DNA of 64,000 bases from a virus. Lineage: Duplodnaviria > Caudoviricetes. The notes below the pieces were generated by a model that did no database searches, was not told the origin of the DNA, and saw nothing but the letters and a program-made list of their open reading frames with translations. Position 1 is the stretch's first letter, and the number at the start of each line of letters is the position of its first letter. Shown piece by piece: positions 4,025 through 46,172 of this stretch. The translations under genes and the position numbers were made by a program. The stretch lies in the IMG/VR virus record IMGVR_UViG_3300029705_000042; one strand, given 5' to 3'.

Positions 4025-4103
4025 AGCATACCGCTTACTTTGGATATAGCGGTGTACCTTTAACAAGACAGATATTTCCGTCTTGCCCATCAGGGTTTAT
4101 GCT
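4025..4103 (-). ncRNA. Twister ribozyme, permuted type P5 (copy C)
   Basis: agcau..ACCCU GA UGG [P1 gcaagacgga/ucugucuugu] U^AA AGGU AC accgcu..U CCA AA GU..agcggu augcu; predicted cut 4062/4061. Confidence 0.78.
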
Positions 4104-4552: not shown

Positions 4553-4587
4553 AATTTATTCCTTCTCTCTTTTTATTTTTGTGGCTT

Positions 4588-4655
4588 CCCACTACACCCA
4601 GCGGAATTTTCCGCTGAATGTTTCGGCTGGTTGCCGTCCAGCCTCATCAGGTAGG
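4588..4655 (-). ncRNA. Hammerhead ribozyme type I (HH1)
   Basis: ccuac CUGAUGA ggcugg/ccagcc GAAA cauucagcgg/ccgcugggug UA^ guggg; GUA triplet; cut 4593/4592. Confidence 0.92.
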
Positions 4656-5198
4656 TCAATGTGCATACTCATAAACTGCTTCTCCGTTTGAGAAAATTCC
4701 AAGGCAATGCAATTCTCTCCATCCGTATTCGGGAGCAACCTTTTCCATCCAACGATTGATTTTGCGAATTTCCGCATCATACTTGCGAATTGCTTGACTT
4801 CTACACATATCATAGTAGTATCTGCAATCCTCATTGTCTAGTTCGTGCGGATTTTCCTTTTCTTCCACGAAAAGCTGAATACCTGTATAATATCCGCTTT
4901 TGAAAACGATTTTGTGGAATGTTAGAGTATCGTTCAATTCTTCCATCTTGTCTTTAAATCCGTCATAACCATTGATAATGTCATCATAGAATGTTTCATT
5001 CCATAAATCCATTGTTTCATTATAGGATTTTTCCAGAATGTGTTTTTTCCATTCGTCAGAAACAGCGACTTCATATTCAGGATAATAATACTCATCATAC
5101 TGAAATTCTTCCGCTTCATATTCTTCCAAACTGATAGGCTCAAAGGCTTGAATGTAAAGGCTAAAATTTTTCTGGGTATAAAAGTTTGGTGTACTCAT
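4656..5198 (-). CDS. Hypothetical protein (180 aa, MSTPNFYTQ...)
   Basis: Start corrected to ATG 5198 (RBS AAGGAAGG); the longer ORF-track start runs through HH2. Confidence 0.8.
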   Translation of the reverse strand: MSTPNFYTQKNFSLYIQAFEPISLEEYEAEEFQYDEYYYPEYEVAVSDEWKKHILEKSYNETMDLWNETFYDDIINGYDGFKDKMEELNDTLTFHKIVFKSGYYTGIQLFVEEKENPHELDNEDCRYYYDMCRSQAIRKYDAEIRKINRWMEKVAPEYGWRELHCLGIFSNGEAVYEYAH

Positions 5199-5233
5199 AA
5201 TATACCATCCTTCCTTTTCTCTTTTTAGTGATT

Positions 5234-5299
5234 TCTCACGACAAGAGGAAATTTTCCTCTTGTTTCGGACGGTCATCATCCGTCCATCATCAGGTGAGA
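5234..5299 (-). ncRNA. Hammerhead ribozyme type I (HH2)
   Basis: ucucac CUGAUGA u ggacgg/ccgucc GAAA caagaggaa/uuccucuug UC^ gugaga; cut 5240/5239. Confidence 0.92.
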
Positions 5300-5302
5300 T
5301 TT

Positions 5303-5644
5303 TCAATAAATATCAACCGAAAAATCCGTTTCATTGTCACCATCGAAAAGCTCTTCATATCCTGCTTTGTTGTATTCTGCGGAAATAATAATCCAGTTGA
5401 TTTCTTCCGTATAGACAATTTCTCCAAACTGTTCCAGATATTCTTTGATACTTTCCGCATCCTTCGGTCTACAAGTGACATATACATCGTTTCCGCTGTC
5501 ATTTTCCACCTTGTAGAACATATCAGGATATTCCCTTGCATTATTCCATATATGCAAGAATGACAACGCATATTTCTGTACACCACCTTCAAGACGGACG
5601 GTGATTCGGATTGCTTTTTCTTTTTCATAGAACAAATTAATCAT
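5303..5644 (-). CDS. Hypothetical protein (113 aa)
   Basis: ORF track; AAAGGA RBS; lies between HH3 and HH2. Confidence 0.8.
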   Translation of the reverse strand: MINLFYEKEKAIRITVRLEGGVQKYALSFLHIWNNAREYPDMFYKVENDSGNDVYVTCRPKDAESIKEYLEQFGEIVYTEEINWIIISAEYNKAGYEELFDGDNETDFSVDIY

Positions 5645-5680
5645 GATTTTTTCCTTTTCTTTTTTAAATTTTTGTAGTTT

Positions 5681-5739
5681 CCTACGACACGGATTTCTCC
5701 GTGTTTCGACAAGTAACTATCTTGTCATCATCAGGTAGG
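5681..5739 (-). ncRNA. Hammerhead ribozyme type I (HH3)
   Basis: ccuac CUGAUGA u gacaag/cuuguc GAAA cacgga/uccgug UC^ guagg; cut 5686/5685. Confidence 0.92.
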
Positions 5740-5741
5740 TT

Positions 5742-6113
5742 TCAAATTTCACAGCAAGTTAAATTCCAAGCGTTTCCAAGCTCGTAATATAATCCGTATT
5801 TTCCAAGAATTTTGGAAAATTCCATCTCAAATTTTGCTCCCCAGTATCCATTTAATACTTCGTATAAACTTCCTTCAAAGCTCATACTCAAAATATTTGG
5901 CTCTGCGACATACTCAAAATAATCCTTCGGGTTTGCCTCATACTCAAAATATTTATTTTGGTTATAGCAAAATTCTGTTCCGTCCTTGCTATTTGTGCTC
6001 CAGCATTTTCCATTAAAATAAATGTGTACATCAATCCACAATTCATTTTTAATCAAAAATGCGTGAATTTCCTTTGCTAACTGTTCAATTTTTTTATGCT
6101 GTTTTGCATTCAT
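5742..6113 (-). CDS. Hypothetical protein (123 aa, MNAKQHKKIE...)
   Basis: Start corrected to ATG 6113 (RBS AAGGGAG). Confidence 0.8.
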   Translation of the reverse strand: MNAKQHKKIEQLAKEIHAFLIKNELWIDVHIYFNGKCWSTNSKDGTEFCYNQNKYFEYEANPKDYFEYVAEPNILSMSFEGSLYEVLNGYWGAKFEMEFSKILGKYGLYYELGNAWNLTCCEI

Positions 6114-6146
6114 TTTTGACAGCTCCCTTTTCGCTTTTATGTGGTT

Positions 6147-6202
6147 TTCCACGACGCTCCAAGCGTTTCGGCAAGTGACCAACTTGCCATCGTCAGGTGG
6201 AA
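6147..6202 (-). ncRNA. Hammerhead ribozyme type I (HH4)
   Basis: uuccac CUGACGA u ggcaagu/acuugcc GAAA cgcu/agcg UC^ guggaa; cut 6153/6152. Confidence 0.92.
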
Positions 6203-6203
6203 T

Positions 6204-6320
6204 TTACTTTTGTCCGTCAAATTTACAAATACCTTCTTTGACAGCTTCTTTTGCGATTTCTCCCTTGCCAGTAGTCAGGAAGATAATCCAATTCAAGATT
6301 GATTTTAGTACTTTTTTCAT
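6204..6320 (-). CDS. Micro-protein (38 aa, MKKVLKSILNWIIFLTTGKG...)
   Basis: GGAGG RBS; ATGA overlap with the upstream stop. Confidence 0.7.
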   Translation of the reverse strand: MKKVLKSILNWIIFLTTGKGEIAKEAVKEGICKFDGQK

Positions 6321-6523
6321 ACGATTTTTCCTCCGCATTTAATAATACTTGCAATTATAACCATTGTTTCGGATTCTCCGAAGTGCATTCTATAACGCAA
6401 CATGTTATATATTTCTTCAAATGATATGGGATTACCAGATAATGTATTTCCGAAGTATGCAGTATTATCTTTGTTTGCGTTAATAATCTGTTCACATTCT
6501 TTTTTCGTCCAATGATTTTTCAT
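6317..6523 (-). CDS. Hypothetical protein (68 aa)
   Basis: ORF track; AAAGGA RBS. Confidence 0.75.
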   Translation of the reverse strand: MKNHWTKKECEQIINANKDNTAYFGNTLSGNPISFEEIYNMLRYRMHFGESETMVIIASIIKCGGKIV

Positions 6524-6557
6524 ATGATTTTTTCCTTTTCTTTTTATTCAGGTTTTC

Positions 6558-6627
6558 ACCTACCCCAGCGGATAAAACCGCTGGACGCTCACGGCTTAAA
6601 GGTCTGTTTATACTTGCCGTGACAAGT
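6558..6627 (-). ncRNA. Pistol ribozyme (copy 1)
   Basis: P1 acuug/caagu with loop ucacgg; AUAAACAG; P2 accu/aggu; UUAA; pseudoknot gccguga; GCG; P3 uccagcgg/ccgcuggg; G^U site 6563/6562. Confidence 0.9.
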
Positions 6628-6629
6628 TT

Positions 6630-6986
6630 TTAAAGCATCGTGTAAAGCTCTTGCAGGTCTGCATAAAATACAGGTTTGTTTTCGGCAAGGTCTTGCATCA
6701 TGACAGCTTCTTTTGCTCCCGTCATACGCTTTATATTGTGCTTGCGTTTGTATGCTTCTCTAAAGTCTGCAAATTCAGCATCAAGCAAAGCATAAACGCA
6801 TCTTTTCATGACGGATTGATAACAGTATGATTCCCAAGTACGATTATAGTACTGAACTTTTGCCTCGCCTATCAAACTACCGTTTTTATACAGTTTTGTT
6901 TCATGTACAAAACCAGAACGATTTGAACGATAGGAATTGACAAATTCATACTCATTATTGTTTATAATCTTTGTTGTAGTACTCAT
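6630..6986 (-). CDS. Hypothetical protein (118 aa, MSTTTKIINN...)
   Basis: Start corrected to ATG 6986 (RBS GGAAGGTG). Confidence 0.8.
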   Translation of the reverse strand: MSTTTKIINNNEYEFVNSYRSNRSGFVHETKLYKNGSLIGEAKVQYYNRTWESYCYQSVMKRCVYALLDAEFADFREAYKRKHNIKRMTGAKEAVMMQDLAENKPVFYADLQELYTML

Positions 6987-7010
6987 AATATAGCACCTTC
7001 CTTTTCTTTT

Positions 7011-7072
7011 AATCTGGACGCCTTGACTTGCAAGGCGTTTCGTCTTAATTTTCAAAGACTCATCAGCAGATT
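7011..7072 (-). ncRNA. Hammerhead ribozyme type I (HH5)
   Basis: aaucug CUGAUGA gucuu/aagac GAAA cgccuug/caaggcg UC^ cagauu; cut 7017/7016. Confidence 0.93.
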
Positions 7073-7073
7073 T

Positions 7074-7325
7074 TTATATTACGCTTAATTCTTTTAATGC
7101 TTTTTTGCCTAGCGTATAAATATGCGTATCATCACAATTATATTTTTCATACCATTCGCACATAGTATTTGAGCCTATAAAAGCACGGAGACAGTCAAAA
7201 GTTAAACGCTTTTCAAAGTCGTTATATTGACCGCTTGCCTTTAGTTTTGGAGCGTATTCTTTGATTTTATCAATATGCTTTTCAAATTGATTTTTTACAA
7301 ATTCAAATTCATTTTGAAGCTTCAT
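7074..7325 (-). CDS. Hypothetical protein (83 aa)
   Basis: ORF track; GGAAGGT RBS. Confidence 0.8.
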   Translation of the reverse strand: MKLQNEFEFVKNQFEKHIDKIKEYAPKLKASGQYNDFEKRLTFDCLRAFIGSNTMCEWYEKYNCDDTHIYTLGKKALKELSVI

Positions 7326-7360
7326 GACTTATACCTTCCTTTTCTTTTTATTGAGTTTTC

Positions 7361-7431
7361 GCTCATCCCAGCCTTTATTGAGGCTGGACGCTCCCAGCTT
7401 AAGAGCCTATTTTTAATCGCTGGGACGATTA
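7361..7431 (-). ncRNA. Pistol ribozyme (copy 2)
   Basis: P1 aaucg/cgauu with loop ucccag; AAAAAUAG; P2 gcuc/gagc; UUAA; pseudoknot gcuggga; GCG; P3 uccagccu/aggcuggg; A^U site 7366/7365; compensatory changes relative to copy 1. Confidence 0.88.
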
Positions 7432-7434
7432 TTT

Positions 7435-7704
7435 TTAACAAGTAATTAAATAACTATTTTTTGTAGTTACAATACGCCAGCCGTTTTTTACTTGCCAAGA
7501 TACTGTATATTGATAATCGTTATAACTGCAAATATGAAAGTTTTTGCCGTGTTCTGCTGAACACTTAAAAATTAAATCAATGAAAATATGATTTTCTAAA
7601 GGCGTATAACTTGAATAAATGTCATCAATCAAAAAGCCTTTGTCTTGTTTGGCTAGTTTAATCATTGCCTGACCTTTATGCGTTTTGCCGTCGATAACTT
7701 TCAT
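7435..7704 (-). CDS. Hypothetical protein (89 aa)
   Basis: ORF track; AAGGGAG RBS. Confidence 0.8.
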   Translation of the reverse strand: MKVIDGKTHKGQAMIKLAKQDKGFLIDDIYSSYTPLENHIFIDLIFKCSAEHGKNFHICSYNDYQYTVSWQVKNGWRIVTTKNSYLITC

Positions 7705-7740
7705 TTTTGACAGCTCCCTTTTCTCTTTTTATAGGATTTT

Positions 7741-7796
7741 ATCCCGACGCCCGTGCTGGGCGTTTCGTCGTAATTTTCAACGACTCATCAGGGGAT
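7741..7796 (-). ncRNA. Hammerhead ribozyme type I (HH6)
   Basis: auccc CUGAUGA gucgu/acgac GAAA cgccc/gggcg UC^ gggau; cut 7746/7745. Confidence 0.93.
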
Positions 7797-7807
7797 TTTA
7801 CGGGGAA

Positions 7808-8161
7808 TTATATAAAATACATTTCCCCGTTAATCTCAAGAGCAACAGCATCCTGATTCAATTCTGTTTTTACTGTCTCGCAAAAATCAATTACTTTTTC
7901 GATATTGTTTTGTAAATCTGTATCGCTACAATATGCAAATACCATTGTTGAACGTTCTTTTACTAAACCAGCAGAAGGGCTTACCCAGTATCCCAGAGCC
8001 TCGCAAGATGTAGCACCGCCGAAAGACTCGGAAAGTAAAACAGCGCAAGCATCAATATATTTTTTTGTGTTTGCTGTCTGGTTTATATCTACTGTTGACG
8101 GGATATAAACTGTAATTTTGCTAGACAATTTAAACATATTTTTTAATTTTGCGTTCATCAT
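7808..8161 (-). CDS. Hypothetical protein (117 aa), first gene of the leftward operon
   Basis: ORF track; GGAGG RBS; FGGAT..GYW motif. Confidence 0.8.
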   Translation of the reverse strand: MMNAKLKNMFKLSSKITVYIPSTVDINQTANTKKYIDACAVLLSESFGGATSCEALGYWVSPSAGLVKERSTMVFAYCSDTDLQNNIEKVIDFCETVKTELNQDAVALEINGEMYFI

Positions 8162-8190
8162 TTTTGACCGCCTCCATTATCTTTTTATTT

Positions 8191-8243
8191 TGCCTATCGC
8201 CTTTTTACATACGGGCTTTAGACCGTCAACGGCAGGTTTAGCA
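8191..8243 (-). ncRNA. Twister ribozyme type P1
   Basis: ugc U^AA accu GC cguug ACGG U CUA AA GC CCGU augu aaaa aggc GA UAG gca; canonical layout with T1 CUA/UAG; cut 8240/8239. Confidence 0.88.
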
Positions 8244-8390
8244 GGGTATAACCTTAATAGTTATACCCCAGATAAAAAGATAAAGGAAAAGGAATTTTTA
8301 ACGTCGACTTGCTACATTTTCAAGCTTTCAGGTGTACGCCTCATGCGATACTTTTATAACCTTACGACTTGACACGCTTTCAAGCTCGAC

Positions 8391-15105: not shown

Positions 15106-15181
15106 GCTTCGATATCTCAATTGGCAGAGGACTTGATTTGTAATCAAGATGTTGTGGGTTCAATTCCCTCTCGAAGCTCCA
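15106..15181 (+). tRNA. tRNA-Thr (UGU)
   Basis: Acceptor GCTTCGA/TCGAAGC, anticodon arm CTTGA-TTTGTAA-TCAAG, T loop TTCAATT, encoded CCA; 76 nt; one T-stem mismatch. Confidence 0.9.
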
Positions 15182-43200: not shown

Positions 43201-45870
43201 AAGATAGAATCTGAAATTGAAAAGGCTAAATCTAAGATTGCAGAAATAAATAATAGTTCTGTTAGTCCAGAAGTTAAAACCGCTCAATTAGAAGACGCAC
43301 GAGCAAAGTTAGAAGCGTTAATTCAAAAGAAACAAGAAGCAAGTCAACCTGCTTTTATGAATTTGAACACTTCTCAAGTCAATGCTTCTCTTGTTGATGC
43401 TCTTGAAAAAATTCAATCTTATCAAGCCGCTCTTAATGAACTTAATGAGTTAAAAGAACTTAAAGCTGCTGGCATTGCCATTGATGATACAGAGATAGCT
43501 GCTGCTGAAGAAAAACTTGACGGATTTGCAAAAGCAATCCAAGGTCTTGATGGCGATGTTAAGGTTGCAATCGGTCTTGAAGAAGACGGCAGTATTGATT
43601 CTATTCATAAGGCTTTTGAAGAAGGCAAAGTTAAAATAGATGCAAATACAGACCCCGCTCTTAATAAGATTGAACAACTTGCTGAAAATGTTGAAAGAAT
43701 TGAAGATAAAGATGTAACAATTAATGTTACGGTCAATGGTTTAAATGATGTTAAAGAACTCAATAAACAAATTGACCTTGCTACTGATATTCAAGGCGAC
43801 ATTGATAAATTATCTGAATATGTAGAAAATGCTAAGGAATTAAGTAAGCTTGGAAATAATATTACTTCAAAAGTTACCGCAGATGTTCAAGGTAATGTTA
43901 TTAAAACCCCAGAATATGAAATTAACAATTTAAAGGTGTTTACTGACGGTGCCAAGGATGTTCATTCTATAGGGTATGTTTCAAGCAAGGTCACTGCCGA
44001 TATTGATGGCAATGTTTTTGATAATAGTGAGCGTACTATTGACAATCTTAAAGCATACACAGATAGTGCCAAAGATATCAAAGAATTCAAAGGTGATATA
44101 TCAAGCAAAATTACTGCAGATATTGAGGGTGATGTCTTTGATAAAAATGAAAGCACTATTAATAATCTTGAGGTATTCGTTGATAGTGCAAAAGGCATAA
44201 AAGAAATTGAAGGTAATATTGTAAGTAATATTACTGCTAACACACTCGGTAGCGTATTTACCGACAAAGAACGCAGCATCGATAATCTCGATGTGTATAT
44301 CGAAAGTGCTAAAGGCATTAGGGATATCGAGGGTAATATTGTAAGTAATATTACCGCTGATGTTGATGGTAGTGTATTTACAGATAGTGAACGCACCATT
44401 GATAATCTCAAAGTATTTATTGACAGTGCTAAAGGAATAAAAGATTTCGAAGGAGATACTATCAGTAATATTACTGCAAACACTTTGGGTAACGTGTTTA
44501 CTGATAGTGAGCGTACTACCGACAATCTCAAAACTTTCATTGAAAGTGCTAATGGTATTAAAGATATCAAAGGTGACATTGTTAGTAACATCACAGCAAA
44601 TACCCTTGGCAGTGTATTCACTGATGAAGAAAAATCTCTTGATAATCTTAGTGTATTCATAGAGAGTGCAAAAGGTATCAAGGATATTCAAGGCGATATA
44701 GTTAGTAACATTACTGCCAATACTTTAGGTAGTGTTTTCGAAGACAAAGAGCGTAGCATTGACAACCTTAAAGTCTTTACTGAAAGTGCAAAGGGAATCA
44801 AAGAGATTGAAGGCGATATCGTAAGTAATATTACCGCCAATACTTTAGGAAGTGTCTTTGAAGACCCAGAAAGAGAAACAAACAACCTTAAAGTTTTTGT
44901 AGATAGTGCTAAGGGCATAAAAGACATTGAGGGTGATATTGTAAGCAATATCACAGCTAACACTTTAGGTAGTGTATTTACTGATAAAGAGAGGTCAATT
45001 GATAATCTCAAAGTATTTATTGATAGTGCAAAGGGAATCAAAGAGATTGAAGGAAACATTTCCAGTAAAATTACTGCTGATGTTGACGGAAATGTATTTG
45101 ATAAATATGAAACTACCATAGACAATCTCGGTGTATTTGTAAAAAATGCAAAGGGTATTAAGAGCGTTGAAGGTGAGGTTTCAAGCAAGGTTACTGCTAA
45201 TGTATATGGCAATGTACTCACCTCTGAAGATGACAAGATTTCCAATCTTGGTGTTTTTGCAGATAACGCCAATAAACTAAAAGGTCTTGGCAATTTTTCA
45301 AGTAGTGTTTCTGCAAATGCTACTGGCAATGTTGTTGAAGGCGAAGGTGCTGCAAGTAGGCTCTCTTCTTTAACCGAATTTAAATCTATAGTTAGCGGAA
45401 TGACAAATCAAACAGTGACTGTTAGTGTTACTGCCAAGGTAGATTCTGAAAATGTCAATGCTGCTATTGATTTATTGAGAAAGGTATCTGACAGCGGTGT
45501 GTTCAAGGATTATAACGCAACTGTTCAAGTCGGTGCTAAAATTGCTAAAATTGACGATACAGTAGTACAAAATTATAAAGCACCTTCAAAGGATAGTACT
45601 GTTAAATATAGTGTAGACCCAGAATCGAGTGTTTACACTTGGACTGCGCCTCCAAAAGATGGGGTTGTTAATTATAGTGCGAGTGTTGAAGCATTAACGG
45701 ATGCACAAAAGCACAAAACTGGAACGATTACTTATAAAGCTAAACTTGAAGGTTTTCCTGTTGCCACTGGAACAGCTAATGCCGATGGTTCGGCTAATGG
45801 TCGTGCTTTTTCTCGTGGAAATTGGGGCATAAAAGGAAGCGGTGTTGCCCTTGGTGGCGAGTTAGGTCGT
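40215..45870 (+). CDS. Tape measure protein, exon 2
   Basis: In frame with the 40270 ORF; hydrophobic segments, coiled coils and 40-aa repeats; ends LGGELGR. Confidence 0.85.
43861..45340 (+). repeat. About 12 tandem 120-bp (40-aa) repeats in the tape measure gene
   Basis: Unit IVSNITANTLGSVFTDKERSIDNLKVFIDSAKGIKEIEGD recurs every 120 nt (44218, 44338 ... 45058). Confidence 0.9.
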
Positions 45871-46022
45871 AAAATATTGCGACCATACATAGTGATATGT
45901 ATTAAAAAATCTATTTAATTGCTGGAAAATCCTTAGAGTTATCCTGCTACAACATAAGTCGTGAGACTAAGTGTGAATGCTTAAAAAGTGGATAAATTGG
46001 ACAATCAGCAGCCAAATTCCTA

Positions 46023-46051
46023 TTGACAAAATATTACTATTGTGATATAAT
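46023..46051 (+). promoter_or_regulatory. Consensus sigma70 promoter inside intron 2
   Basis: TTGACA-17 bp-TATAAT ~120 nt upstream of the intron ORF. Confidence 0.75.
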
Positions 46052-46172
46052 TATGATAGGAAGAGGTTCAACGACTATCCCCTGTGTGGGAGTAGAGCTA
46101 CAAGCGATTGGTAGTTCGAAAAGGTAGATATGTGAAATTAAAATAAATTTATTGATAAAGGTGGTGAGAAAA

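Follow-up and report, generated by a model that had tools for sequence, protein, structure and literature searches.

What becomes of the short strand that a self-cleaving ribozyme leaves at the head of the message it releases? This question is raised by a 64,000-nucleotide (nt) stretch of DNA from a virus of the Caudoviricetes (IMG/VR record IMGVR_UViG_3300029705_000042), which is referred to at its full length as the window. A run of small phage genes of unassigned function is encoded there on the minus strand, from 8161 to 4217, and in each of its gaps, from a stop codon to the ribosome-binding site that follows, this operon has one self-cleaving ribozyme, i.e., six type-I hammerheads (HH1 to HH6) and two pistols. 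The 3' products of seven of these eight ribozymes open with a hairpin of 4–5 base pairs (bp) at a product offset of 0–1 nt. We see an even chance that phage type-I hammerheads and pistols have been selected to carry this hairpin as an accessory, which would act after the cut through product release, irreversibility or pairing of the new 5' end. All hammerhead, pistol and hairpin features of the operon lie on the minus strand, and cleavage sites and first product bases were taken straight from the sequence. The product hairpins are as follows.

4581..4592, minus strand: HH1 product hairpin, GUGG-GAAG-CCAC, product from 4592, –5.9 kcal/mol
5228..5239, minus strand: HH2 product hairpin, GUGA-GAAA-UCAC, product from 5239, –3.5 kcal/mol
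5674..5685, minus strand: HH3 product hairpin, GUAG-GAAA-CUAC, product from 5685, –4.2 kcal/mol
6141..6152, minus strand: HH4 product hairpin, GUGG-AAAA-CCAC, product from 6152, –4.8 kcal/mol
6550..6562, minus strand: pistol 1 product hairpin, U-AGGU-GAAA-ACCU, product from 6562, reusing the P2 3' strand
7352..7365, minus strand: pistol 2 product hairpin, UGAG-CGAAAA-CUCA, product from 7365
7733..7745, minus strand: HH6 product hairpin, (G)GGAU-AAA-AUCC(U), product from 7745, –3.2 kcal/mol

The predicted energies of these hairpins thus range from –3.2 to –5.9 kcal/mol, and no hairpin was found in the HH5 product (from 7016), which reads CAGAUUAAAAG / CAGAUUAAAAGAAAAGG. An initial annotation of this DNA had listed the same seven hairpins and the HH5 exception, between 4581 (the last base of the HH1 hairpin) and 7745 (the first base of the HH6 product), and direct reading of the cleavage sites and products bore it out exactly. 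As it had stated, the hairpin is made from the 3' strand of stem I or P2, which was seen in all seven cases, and it spans two ribozyme classes, i.e., the hammerheads and both Rfam-supported pistols. Wherever the hairpin is present, its downstream arm repeats a short piece of the stem I or P2 5' strand, and the 3' strand of this helix can thus pair with either of two partners. When hairpins were counted as at least four Watson-Crick pairs with a loop of 3–6 nt and a start offset of 0–1, the background rate was 4.1% of operon-strand positions and 4.6% window-wide. Against the former rate, seven out of eight corresponds to a binomial P of 1.6e-9, assuming independent sites, and shuffling of the tail at each site gave p = 0.006–0.05. 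Within 6–12 nt of the window hairpins, there always come a spacer rich in A and a strong Shine-Dalgarno sequence. They have the anatomy of a 5'-terminal stabiliser, that is, a predicted stable stem-loop within a few nucleotides of the product 5' end. The ribozymes from which these products arise are the following.

4588..4655, minus strand: HH1, type-I hammerhead, stem I 5' strand CCUAC 4655–4651, core CUGAUGA from 4650, cut after A4593 (GUA^G)
5234..5299, minus strand: HH2, type-I hammerhead, stem I UCUCAC/GUGAGA, cut after C5240
5681..5739, minus strand: HH3, type-I hammerhead, stem I CCUAC/GUAGG, cut after C5686
6147..6202, minus strand: HH4, type-I hammerhead, core CUGACGA, stem I UUCCAC/GUGGAA, cut after C6153
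6558..6627, minus strand: pistol 1, Rfam RF02679 at 69.2 bits, cut between G6563 and U6562
7011..7072, minus strand: HH5, type-I hammerhead, constant stem II GUCUUUGAAAAUUAAGAC, product from 7016
7361..7430, minus strand: pistol 2, Rfam RF02679 at 60.2 bits, cut between A7366 and U7365
7741..7796, minus strand: HH6, type-I hammerhead, constant-type stem II GUCGUUGAAAAUUACGAC, stem I AUCCC/GGGAU, cut after C7746

The same succession of ribozyme, hairpin and leader was found in four diverged relatives of the operon (contigs L499, L569, L104 and L160). In L499, the counterpart of pistol 1 is followed by AGGU-GUAA-ACCU and an HH4-like ribozyme by GUGG-AAAA-CCAC. The pistol hairpin of L104 became AGGG-AAAG-CCCU while the P2 5' strand is now CCCU, i.e., a compensatory change in all three strands. 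HH1-like and HH4-like hairpins are kept in L569, in which the HH4 pseudoknot register has shifted to GGUU/AACC. These compensatory three-strand changes are in line with the proposal that pairing is kept across homologous operons. Besides, the hairpin-less tail of HH5 is itself conserved in L499, L544 and L569. The L569 operon lies in a 124-kb contig of a Clostridia metagenome-assembled genome (MAG; CALEJF010000029.1), so that it may belong to a prophage or to a phage caught by the binning.

A census was then performed on type-I hammerheads and pistols gathered from IMG/VR, metagenome and genome contigs by core-sequence patterns and filtered by structure descriptors, sampled pistols being confirmed by Rfam. 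It covered de-duplicated ribozymes from outside the window, with hairpins starting at product nt 1–3 and a loop of 3–8 nt. Hairpins of at least 5 bp were found in 25/106 pistols (24%; 8.9 ± 2.8 in shuffled tails), in 12/71 hammerheads with a constant loop II (17%; 3.1 ± 1.8) and in 12/46 hammerheads of the HH1–HH4 type (26%; 3.1 ± 1.6), the shuffled expectation being 4–9% across the three families and the head/tail swap nulls resembling the shuffle nulls. With a threshold of at least 4 bp, the frequencies were 34% vs. 14% expected for the constant-loop hammerheads and 67% vs. 25% for the HH1–HH4 type. A first sample of 24 pistols, retrieved with one pattern, showed no enrichment, which emerged in the larger sample, mainly for hairpins of at least 5 bp; at this length, it held after removal of one large family and stricter de-duplication (16/82 vs. 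5.4 ± 2.1). In all three families, hairpin starts cluster at product nt 1–3 and fall to background level farther downstream. The hairpin-bearing members have 31, 19 and 15 distinct 5' arms in the three families, and 20 of the 47 tetraloops are GNRA loops. Depending on family and threshold, the hairpin is thus found in about a fifth to two thirds of the relatives. The conservation in homologues that the initial annotation had called for was therefore recovered in part: the hairpin recurs well above the shuffled, swapped and positional controls, and it is not universal.

Its distribution was also compared with leader type and host. The hairpin was found in 36% of the leaders with a Shine-Dalgarno sequence vs. 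13.5% of those without (Fisher P = 0.03). Among named genomes, all nine clear hairpin cases were in assemblies of the class Clostridia and none in four assemblies of Bacteroidota or Elusimicrobiota. No hairpin is present in most AT-rich marine pistols or in the Bacteroides-type leaders. The stability of stem I gave a weak and confounded signal with regard to hairpin presence.

Two groups of pistols met during this census are worth describing in their own right. A gut-metagenome family (L450 366–420, with members in L432, L473, L500 and L514) has a covarying UUAGC-N3-5-GCUAA hairpin after the ribozyme; it is followed by a conserved CAGAAGCC..AGG..GAUAC, which is not a ribosome-binding site and has no Rfam match. 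On the minus strand of L323, four pistols are present in one operon (products at 4086, 4503, 4997 and 5541), each with its own product hairpin of 5–6 bp, and the common leader AACCAAGGGAGAGAACAUG follows all four.

In HH1 to HH4, the tail that carries the 3' arm of the hairpin has a further partner. According to Perreault et al. (2011; PMC3088659), a pseudoknot between stem I and stem II is needed for fast cleavage and occurs in all three hammerhead types. When such a pseudoknot was sought as covarying pairs, at least 4 bp in number, between the loop of stem II (loop II) and the tail, 4–5 bp were found in HH2 (UGAU/AUCA at 5232–5229), HH3 (UAGUU/AACUA at 5679–5675) and HH4 (UGGU/ACCA at 6145–6142), and 3 bp in HH1 (loop II ACGGCAA, GGC/GCC, partner GCC 4585–4583). 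The relatives of these four hammerheads have a core CUGAUGA-U-stem II and a variable loop II, which is complementary to the tail 1–2 nt past a 5-bp stem I. Covarying loop II/tail pairs include UGGCU/AGCCA, GUAGGAC/GUCCUGC, UGAUU/AAUCA, GGAU/AUCC and CGGUC/GACCG, and at least four Watson-Crick pairs were formed in 23/46 members of this family vs. 5.8 ± 2.1 in shuffled sequences and 5.6 ± 2.0 with swapped partners. In all four window hammerheads, the pseudoknot partner (product nt 7/8–11) overlaps the 3' arm of the hairpin (nt 9–12). Because of this overlap, covariation in HH1 to HH4 has two possible causes. Hence, the statement that pairing is kept while the sequence differs stands as regards pairing, its covariation being confounded in these four cases by the loop II pseudoknot; likewise, what had been treated as a distal arm is not free in HH1 to HH4, since some of its bases lie in the stretch pairing with loop II.

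For HH1 to HH4 only, the hairpin could then be a by-product of the pseudoknot, loop II resembling the 3' strand of stem I by chance. The covarying partner at product nt 6/7–11, its overlap with the arm in all four hammerheads, the relatives that have a pseudoknot and no hairpin, and the established place of this contact in hammerheads all favor this explanation, which we nevertheless regard as unlikely. Indeed, product nt 12, together with nt 11 in HH1, is paired in the hairpin only and not with loop II, and loop II copies product nt 2–4 (UGA, UAG, UGG), which the pseudoknot alone does not demand. The head/tail swap control was also exceeded (34 vs. 23.6 ± 2.4). Furthermore, some relatives have separate elements in the order stem I 3' strand, pseudoknot partner and full copy of the 5' strand, as in GUGGG-AGCCA-CCCAC, GUGGU-AGCCA-ACCAC, GUAGC-GUCCU-GCUAC and four hammerheads of L155; an arm of all 5 nt that shares no base with the pseudoknot partner was found in 13/48 members of the HH1–HH4-type family vs. 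4.4 ± 1.7 after shuffling. Finally, HH6 and both pistols have the hairpin without a loop II partner, and in constant-loop hammerheads loop II matches the tail at background rate (7/71). Several lines of evidence, namely the relatives with separate arms, HH6 and the pistols, therefore indicate that the hairpin is selected in its own right.

The energies of the competing folds were computed for secondary structure only, tertiary contacts being excluded. On this basis, the pre-cleavage ribozyme fold and the hairpin fold lie 0.5–2.3 kcal/mol apart, and such predicted values fit a competing switch. The order of events that we infer for the post-cleavage accessory, together with its benefit, would be as follows. 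Type-I hammerheads and pistols cleave close to their own 3' end, which would leave a short unpaired 5'-OH remnant held by stem I or P2; for this remnant, the copy of the 5' strand located 3–8 nt downstream would offer an intramolecular partner. Before the cut, the folds would be nearly equal in energy and the ribozyme would gain the upper hand through the pseudoknot and other tertiary contacts. After it, stem I or P2 would become an intermolecular duplex of 4–6 bp, over which the intramolecular hairpin would win, and the new 5'-OH end would be drawn from the active site. The product would be released and the reverse (ligation) reaction prevented, making the cut irreversible. The message would be left with its first nucleotides paired just upstream of the Shine-Dalgarno sequence, in a 5'-terminal stem-loop of the kind that slows 5'-end-dependent decay, e.g., by the 5'–3' exonuclease RNase J. 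In HH1 to HH4, the same 5–6 tail bases may be used twice, as the cleavage-activating partner of the pseudoknot and then as the 3' arm of the hairpin. Withdrawal of the 5' end from the active site and irreversible release would be expected to count most for a product retained by both stem I and a pseudoknot of 4–5 bp, and hairpins of at least 4 bp are indeed most frequent in the family held in this way (67% vs. 34–37%).

Faster release, a block to religation, shielding from RNase J and tuning of the cleavage rate, all put forward in the initial annotation, are plausible effects of such a switch. In the case of the glmS ribozyme, the 5'-OH product is degraded by RNase J1, and Bacillus mRNAs are stabilised by 5'-terminal stem-loops. 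The associations with Shine-Dalgarno leaders and with Clostridia are weakly suggestive of protection from RNase J. Besides, in type II and III hammerheads, twisters and hatchets, the architecture itself gives the product a structured 5' end. Judging from the known topologies, a bare remnant would be left only by type-I hammerheads and pistols, and a hairpin add-on compensating for it fits this distribution.

The hairpin could instead act before cleavage, either as a brake that competes with stem I or P2 and thereby sets the rate of cleavage, or as a holding structure in which the 3' strand is parked while a terminating ribosome occludes the 5' strand. The near-equal energies of the two folds before the cut are compatible with such a role, and the arm, only 3–8 nt downstream, would be transcribed a fraction of a second after the stem I strand, well before a cut occurring at about 1–10 per minute. 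In vivo, downstream competing helices do block ribozyme assembly (PMC2817708). Moreover, the stop codon of the upstream open reading frame lies 0–4 nt from the first helix of the ribozyme in seven of the eight junctions (window 4656–7810, minus strand), the distances being 0 nt for HH1, 1 nt for HH4 and HH5, 2 nt for HH3 and pistol 1, 3 nt for HH2, 4 nt for pistol 2 and 11 nt for HH6; a terminating ribosome would thus sit on the 5' strand of stem I or on P1, and cleavage may in this way be coupled to upstream translation. However, a brake has no need to start at product nt 1–3, where the starts are concentrated, some pistols (those of L323) start their hairpin past most of the P2 strand and would hardly compete with it, and nothing indicates that slower cleavage is useful. 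A role before the cut is therefore judged improbable.

Still less probable is a translation insulator, in which the remnant would be tied up and the Shine-Dalgarno sequence kept open, making expression independent of context. This is the stated design rationale of RiboJ, and both the invariable A-rich spacer and Shine-Dalgarno sequence after the window hairpins and the association with Shine-Dalgarno leaders are consistent with it. However, the remnants (GUGGG, GGGAU, AGGU) and the leaders are both purine-rich, so that mispairing with the Shine-Dalgarno sequence is unlikely, and HH5-type leaders work without a hairpin. Lastly, that functionless hairpins arose by chance or were copied with duplicated ribozyme cassettes is hardly credible, even though HH1 to HH4 are clearly paralogous and many public matches are interrelated, since arms differ among paralogues with compensating changes, the enrichment beats shuffle, swap and positional controls in three independently retrieved families, each family has 15–31 distinct arms and GNRA loops are in excess.

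Two other origins were considered and rejected. A target-site duplication as source of the downstream copy does not agree with the varying offsets and lengths of the arms and the excess of GNRA loops. An alternative hammerhead with the hairpin as a closed stem I does not agree with the sequence either, as CUGANGA does not occur after the hairpin and covariation is seen for the upstream strand.

Several points weigh against a selected accessory acting after the cut. The hairpin is missing from HH5 and, elsewhere, from most pistols and most constant-loop hammerheads, so that it is dispensable, and the enrichment in pistols is weak with a threshold of at least 4 bp (37% vs. 26% expected). The complementarity in HH1 to HH4 appears to be owed in part to the pseudoknot overlap, several relatives (e.g., L084, L100, L127 and L170) having a pseudoknot without a hairpin. 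The associations with host and with Shine-Dalgarno leaders are weak and confounded by lineage and GC content. A hairpin so close to the ribozyme forms before cleavage is complete and could slow cutting instead of helping it, and the sequence alone cannot tell release, block of religation and nuclease protection apart. A broader proposal, to which we give a tentative standing, somewhat short of an even chance, is a general "cleave-and-cap" module of phage type-I hammerheads and pistols, in which the tail would first allow cutting by pairing with loop II (or by tolerating stem I or P2) and then form a 5'-terminal hairpin that would eject the product, block religation and shield the 5'-OH message in hosts having a 5'–3' exonuclease.

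How does this element compare with known systems? In bacteria, the ompA, ermC and aprE leaders are 5'-terminal stem-loop stabilisers of mRNA. The present hairpins resemble them in lying 0–2 nt from the 5' end, upstream of the Shine-Dalgarno sequence; in contrast, these leaders have triphosphate ends arising from initiation, whereas the end described here would be a 5'-OH made by a ribozyme. The engineered RiboJ consists of a hammerhead and an added 23-nt hairpin placed before the ribosome-binding site; this terminal hairpin is believed to make the mRNA more stable (PMC6206723). The order of ribozyme, product-terminal hairpin and ribosome-binding site is the same in both, as is the proposal that the hairpin stabilises the mRNA or exposes the ribosome-binding site. 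However, the RiboJ hairpin is a separate addition that does not reuse stem I, whereas the natural one is shorter, with 12–14 nt, and competes with a helix of the ribozyme. In viroid and satellite RNAs (e.g., satRPV RNA), hammerhead switches cited in a review (PMC6765202) likewise oppose an exclusive helix to the active fold, but they serve rolling-circle replication and ligation of circular RNA, whereas the present one is a local structure of 12 nt in a phage mRNA leader.

Prophage operons whose genes are flanked by clustered ribozymes of the hammerhead, pistol and twister classes have been reported (PMC3088659; Harris et al., 2015, PMC4604425; review PMC6765202). They share with the present operon the ribozyme classes, the arrangement between small phage genes and the proposed processing of a long transcript to single-gene mRNAs, and in the passages searched no hairpin is described at the 5' end of the 3' product. 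The pseudoknot of HH1 to HH4 and their 46 relatives, formed with the tail 1–2 nt past a 5-bp stem I, is like that of Perreault et al. (2011), but the bases pairing with loop II lie here within, or partly coincide with, the 3' arm or the loop of a second, mutually exclusive hairpin. In the searchable literature, to which subscription papers including Weinberg 2015 do not belong, neither a 5'-terminal product hairpin made of a stem I or P2 strand nor its overlap with a pseudoknot was found. Ribozyme-punctuated prophage operons, the pistol and hammerhead classes and the hammerhead pseudoknot are already published, whereas the product hairpin is a real accessory of known ribozymes that is apparently undescribed.

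The identification of the ribozymes themselves relied on different tests for the two classes. Both pistols exceed the gathering score of Rfam RF02679 (34.5), with 69.2 and 60.2 bits. The scissile dinucleotide is the usual G-U in pistol 1 and A-U in pistol 2 (window 7366–7365, minus strand), a pair also found in 3/116 other pistols of the public sample. HH1 to HH6 all have the type-I features, i.e., CUGANGA, GAAA, a UH cleavage triplet and three helices with stem I open, and our descriptor search of both strands of the window returned exactly these six hammerheads and no further match. With the Rfam hammerhead models, only HH5 was reported, at 32.6 and 39.3 bits, under the gathering scores of 48.5 and 56.3; HH1 reached only 19 bits, as RAGATH-1-hammerhead, and HH2 to HH4 and HH6 went unreported even at E up to 10. 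HH2 to HH4 have an additional U between A9 and stem II, and the core of HH4 is CUGACGA. Many phage relatives were likewise missed by these models with their core intact. The Rfam hammerhead models are thus a poor test here, and this hammerhead family is under-annotated. For annotation, it should be kept in mind that the tail past the boundary of the Rfam model holds the pseudoknot partner and the hairpin arm.

Other elements were observed around this operon. Directly upstream of its first gene (8161..7808), a twister-P1-like match (window 8190–8244, minus strand) has 28.5 bits and an E of 0.012, under the gathering score of 67.2. Three junctions farther down the operon (window about 4103–4000, 2785–2690 and 2080–1995, minus strand) have in common a repeated motif of ~95 nt, GCAUAA..CUGAURG..hairpin..UAAAGCUACAC..AUCYAAAGUA.., with no Rfam match at E up to 1. 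Elsewhere in the window, a group I intron (45861–46132, plus strand, 60.3 bits) and a tRNA (15106–15178, plus strand, 63.9 bits) were detected.

Regarding the genes and their host, searches of Pfam and PHROGs gave no function for any protein of the operon. Two of the few named homologues of its 401-amino-acid protein are in Oscillospiraceae MAGs; together with the related operon of L569 in a Clostridia MAG, this makes a gut member of the Clostridia the most likely host. Contigs with an identical 401-amino-acid protein represent the same phage (L081), no relative of this protein was found among the viral contigs searched, and many homologues were found elsewhere, in other gene contexts without type-I hammerheads. 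A search of phage GenBank entries returned only 40-nt matches of the ribozyme core, to crAss-like phages.

What the thousands of ribozymes in phage operons do biologically is still an open question (PMC6765202). A conserved accessory, fixed in position on the product side, suggests that the fate of the downstream message matters, beyond the cut alone. Its 4–5 mutable bases offer a small handle on product release, religation and 5'-end-dependent decay. As a natural counterpart of the hairpin added in RiboJ, it could guide the design of compact insulators for Firmicutes. If true, the cleave-and-cap module would explain why ribozymes cutting near their 3' end need such an add-on.

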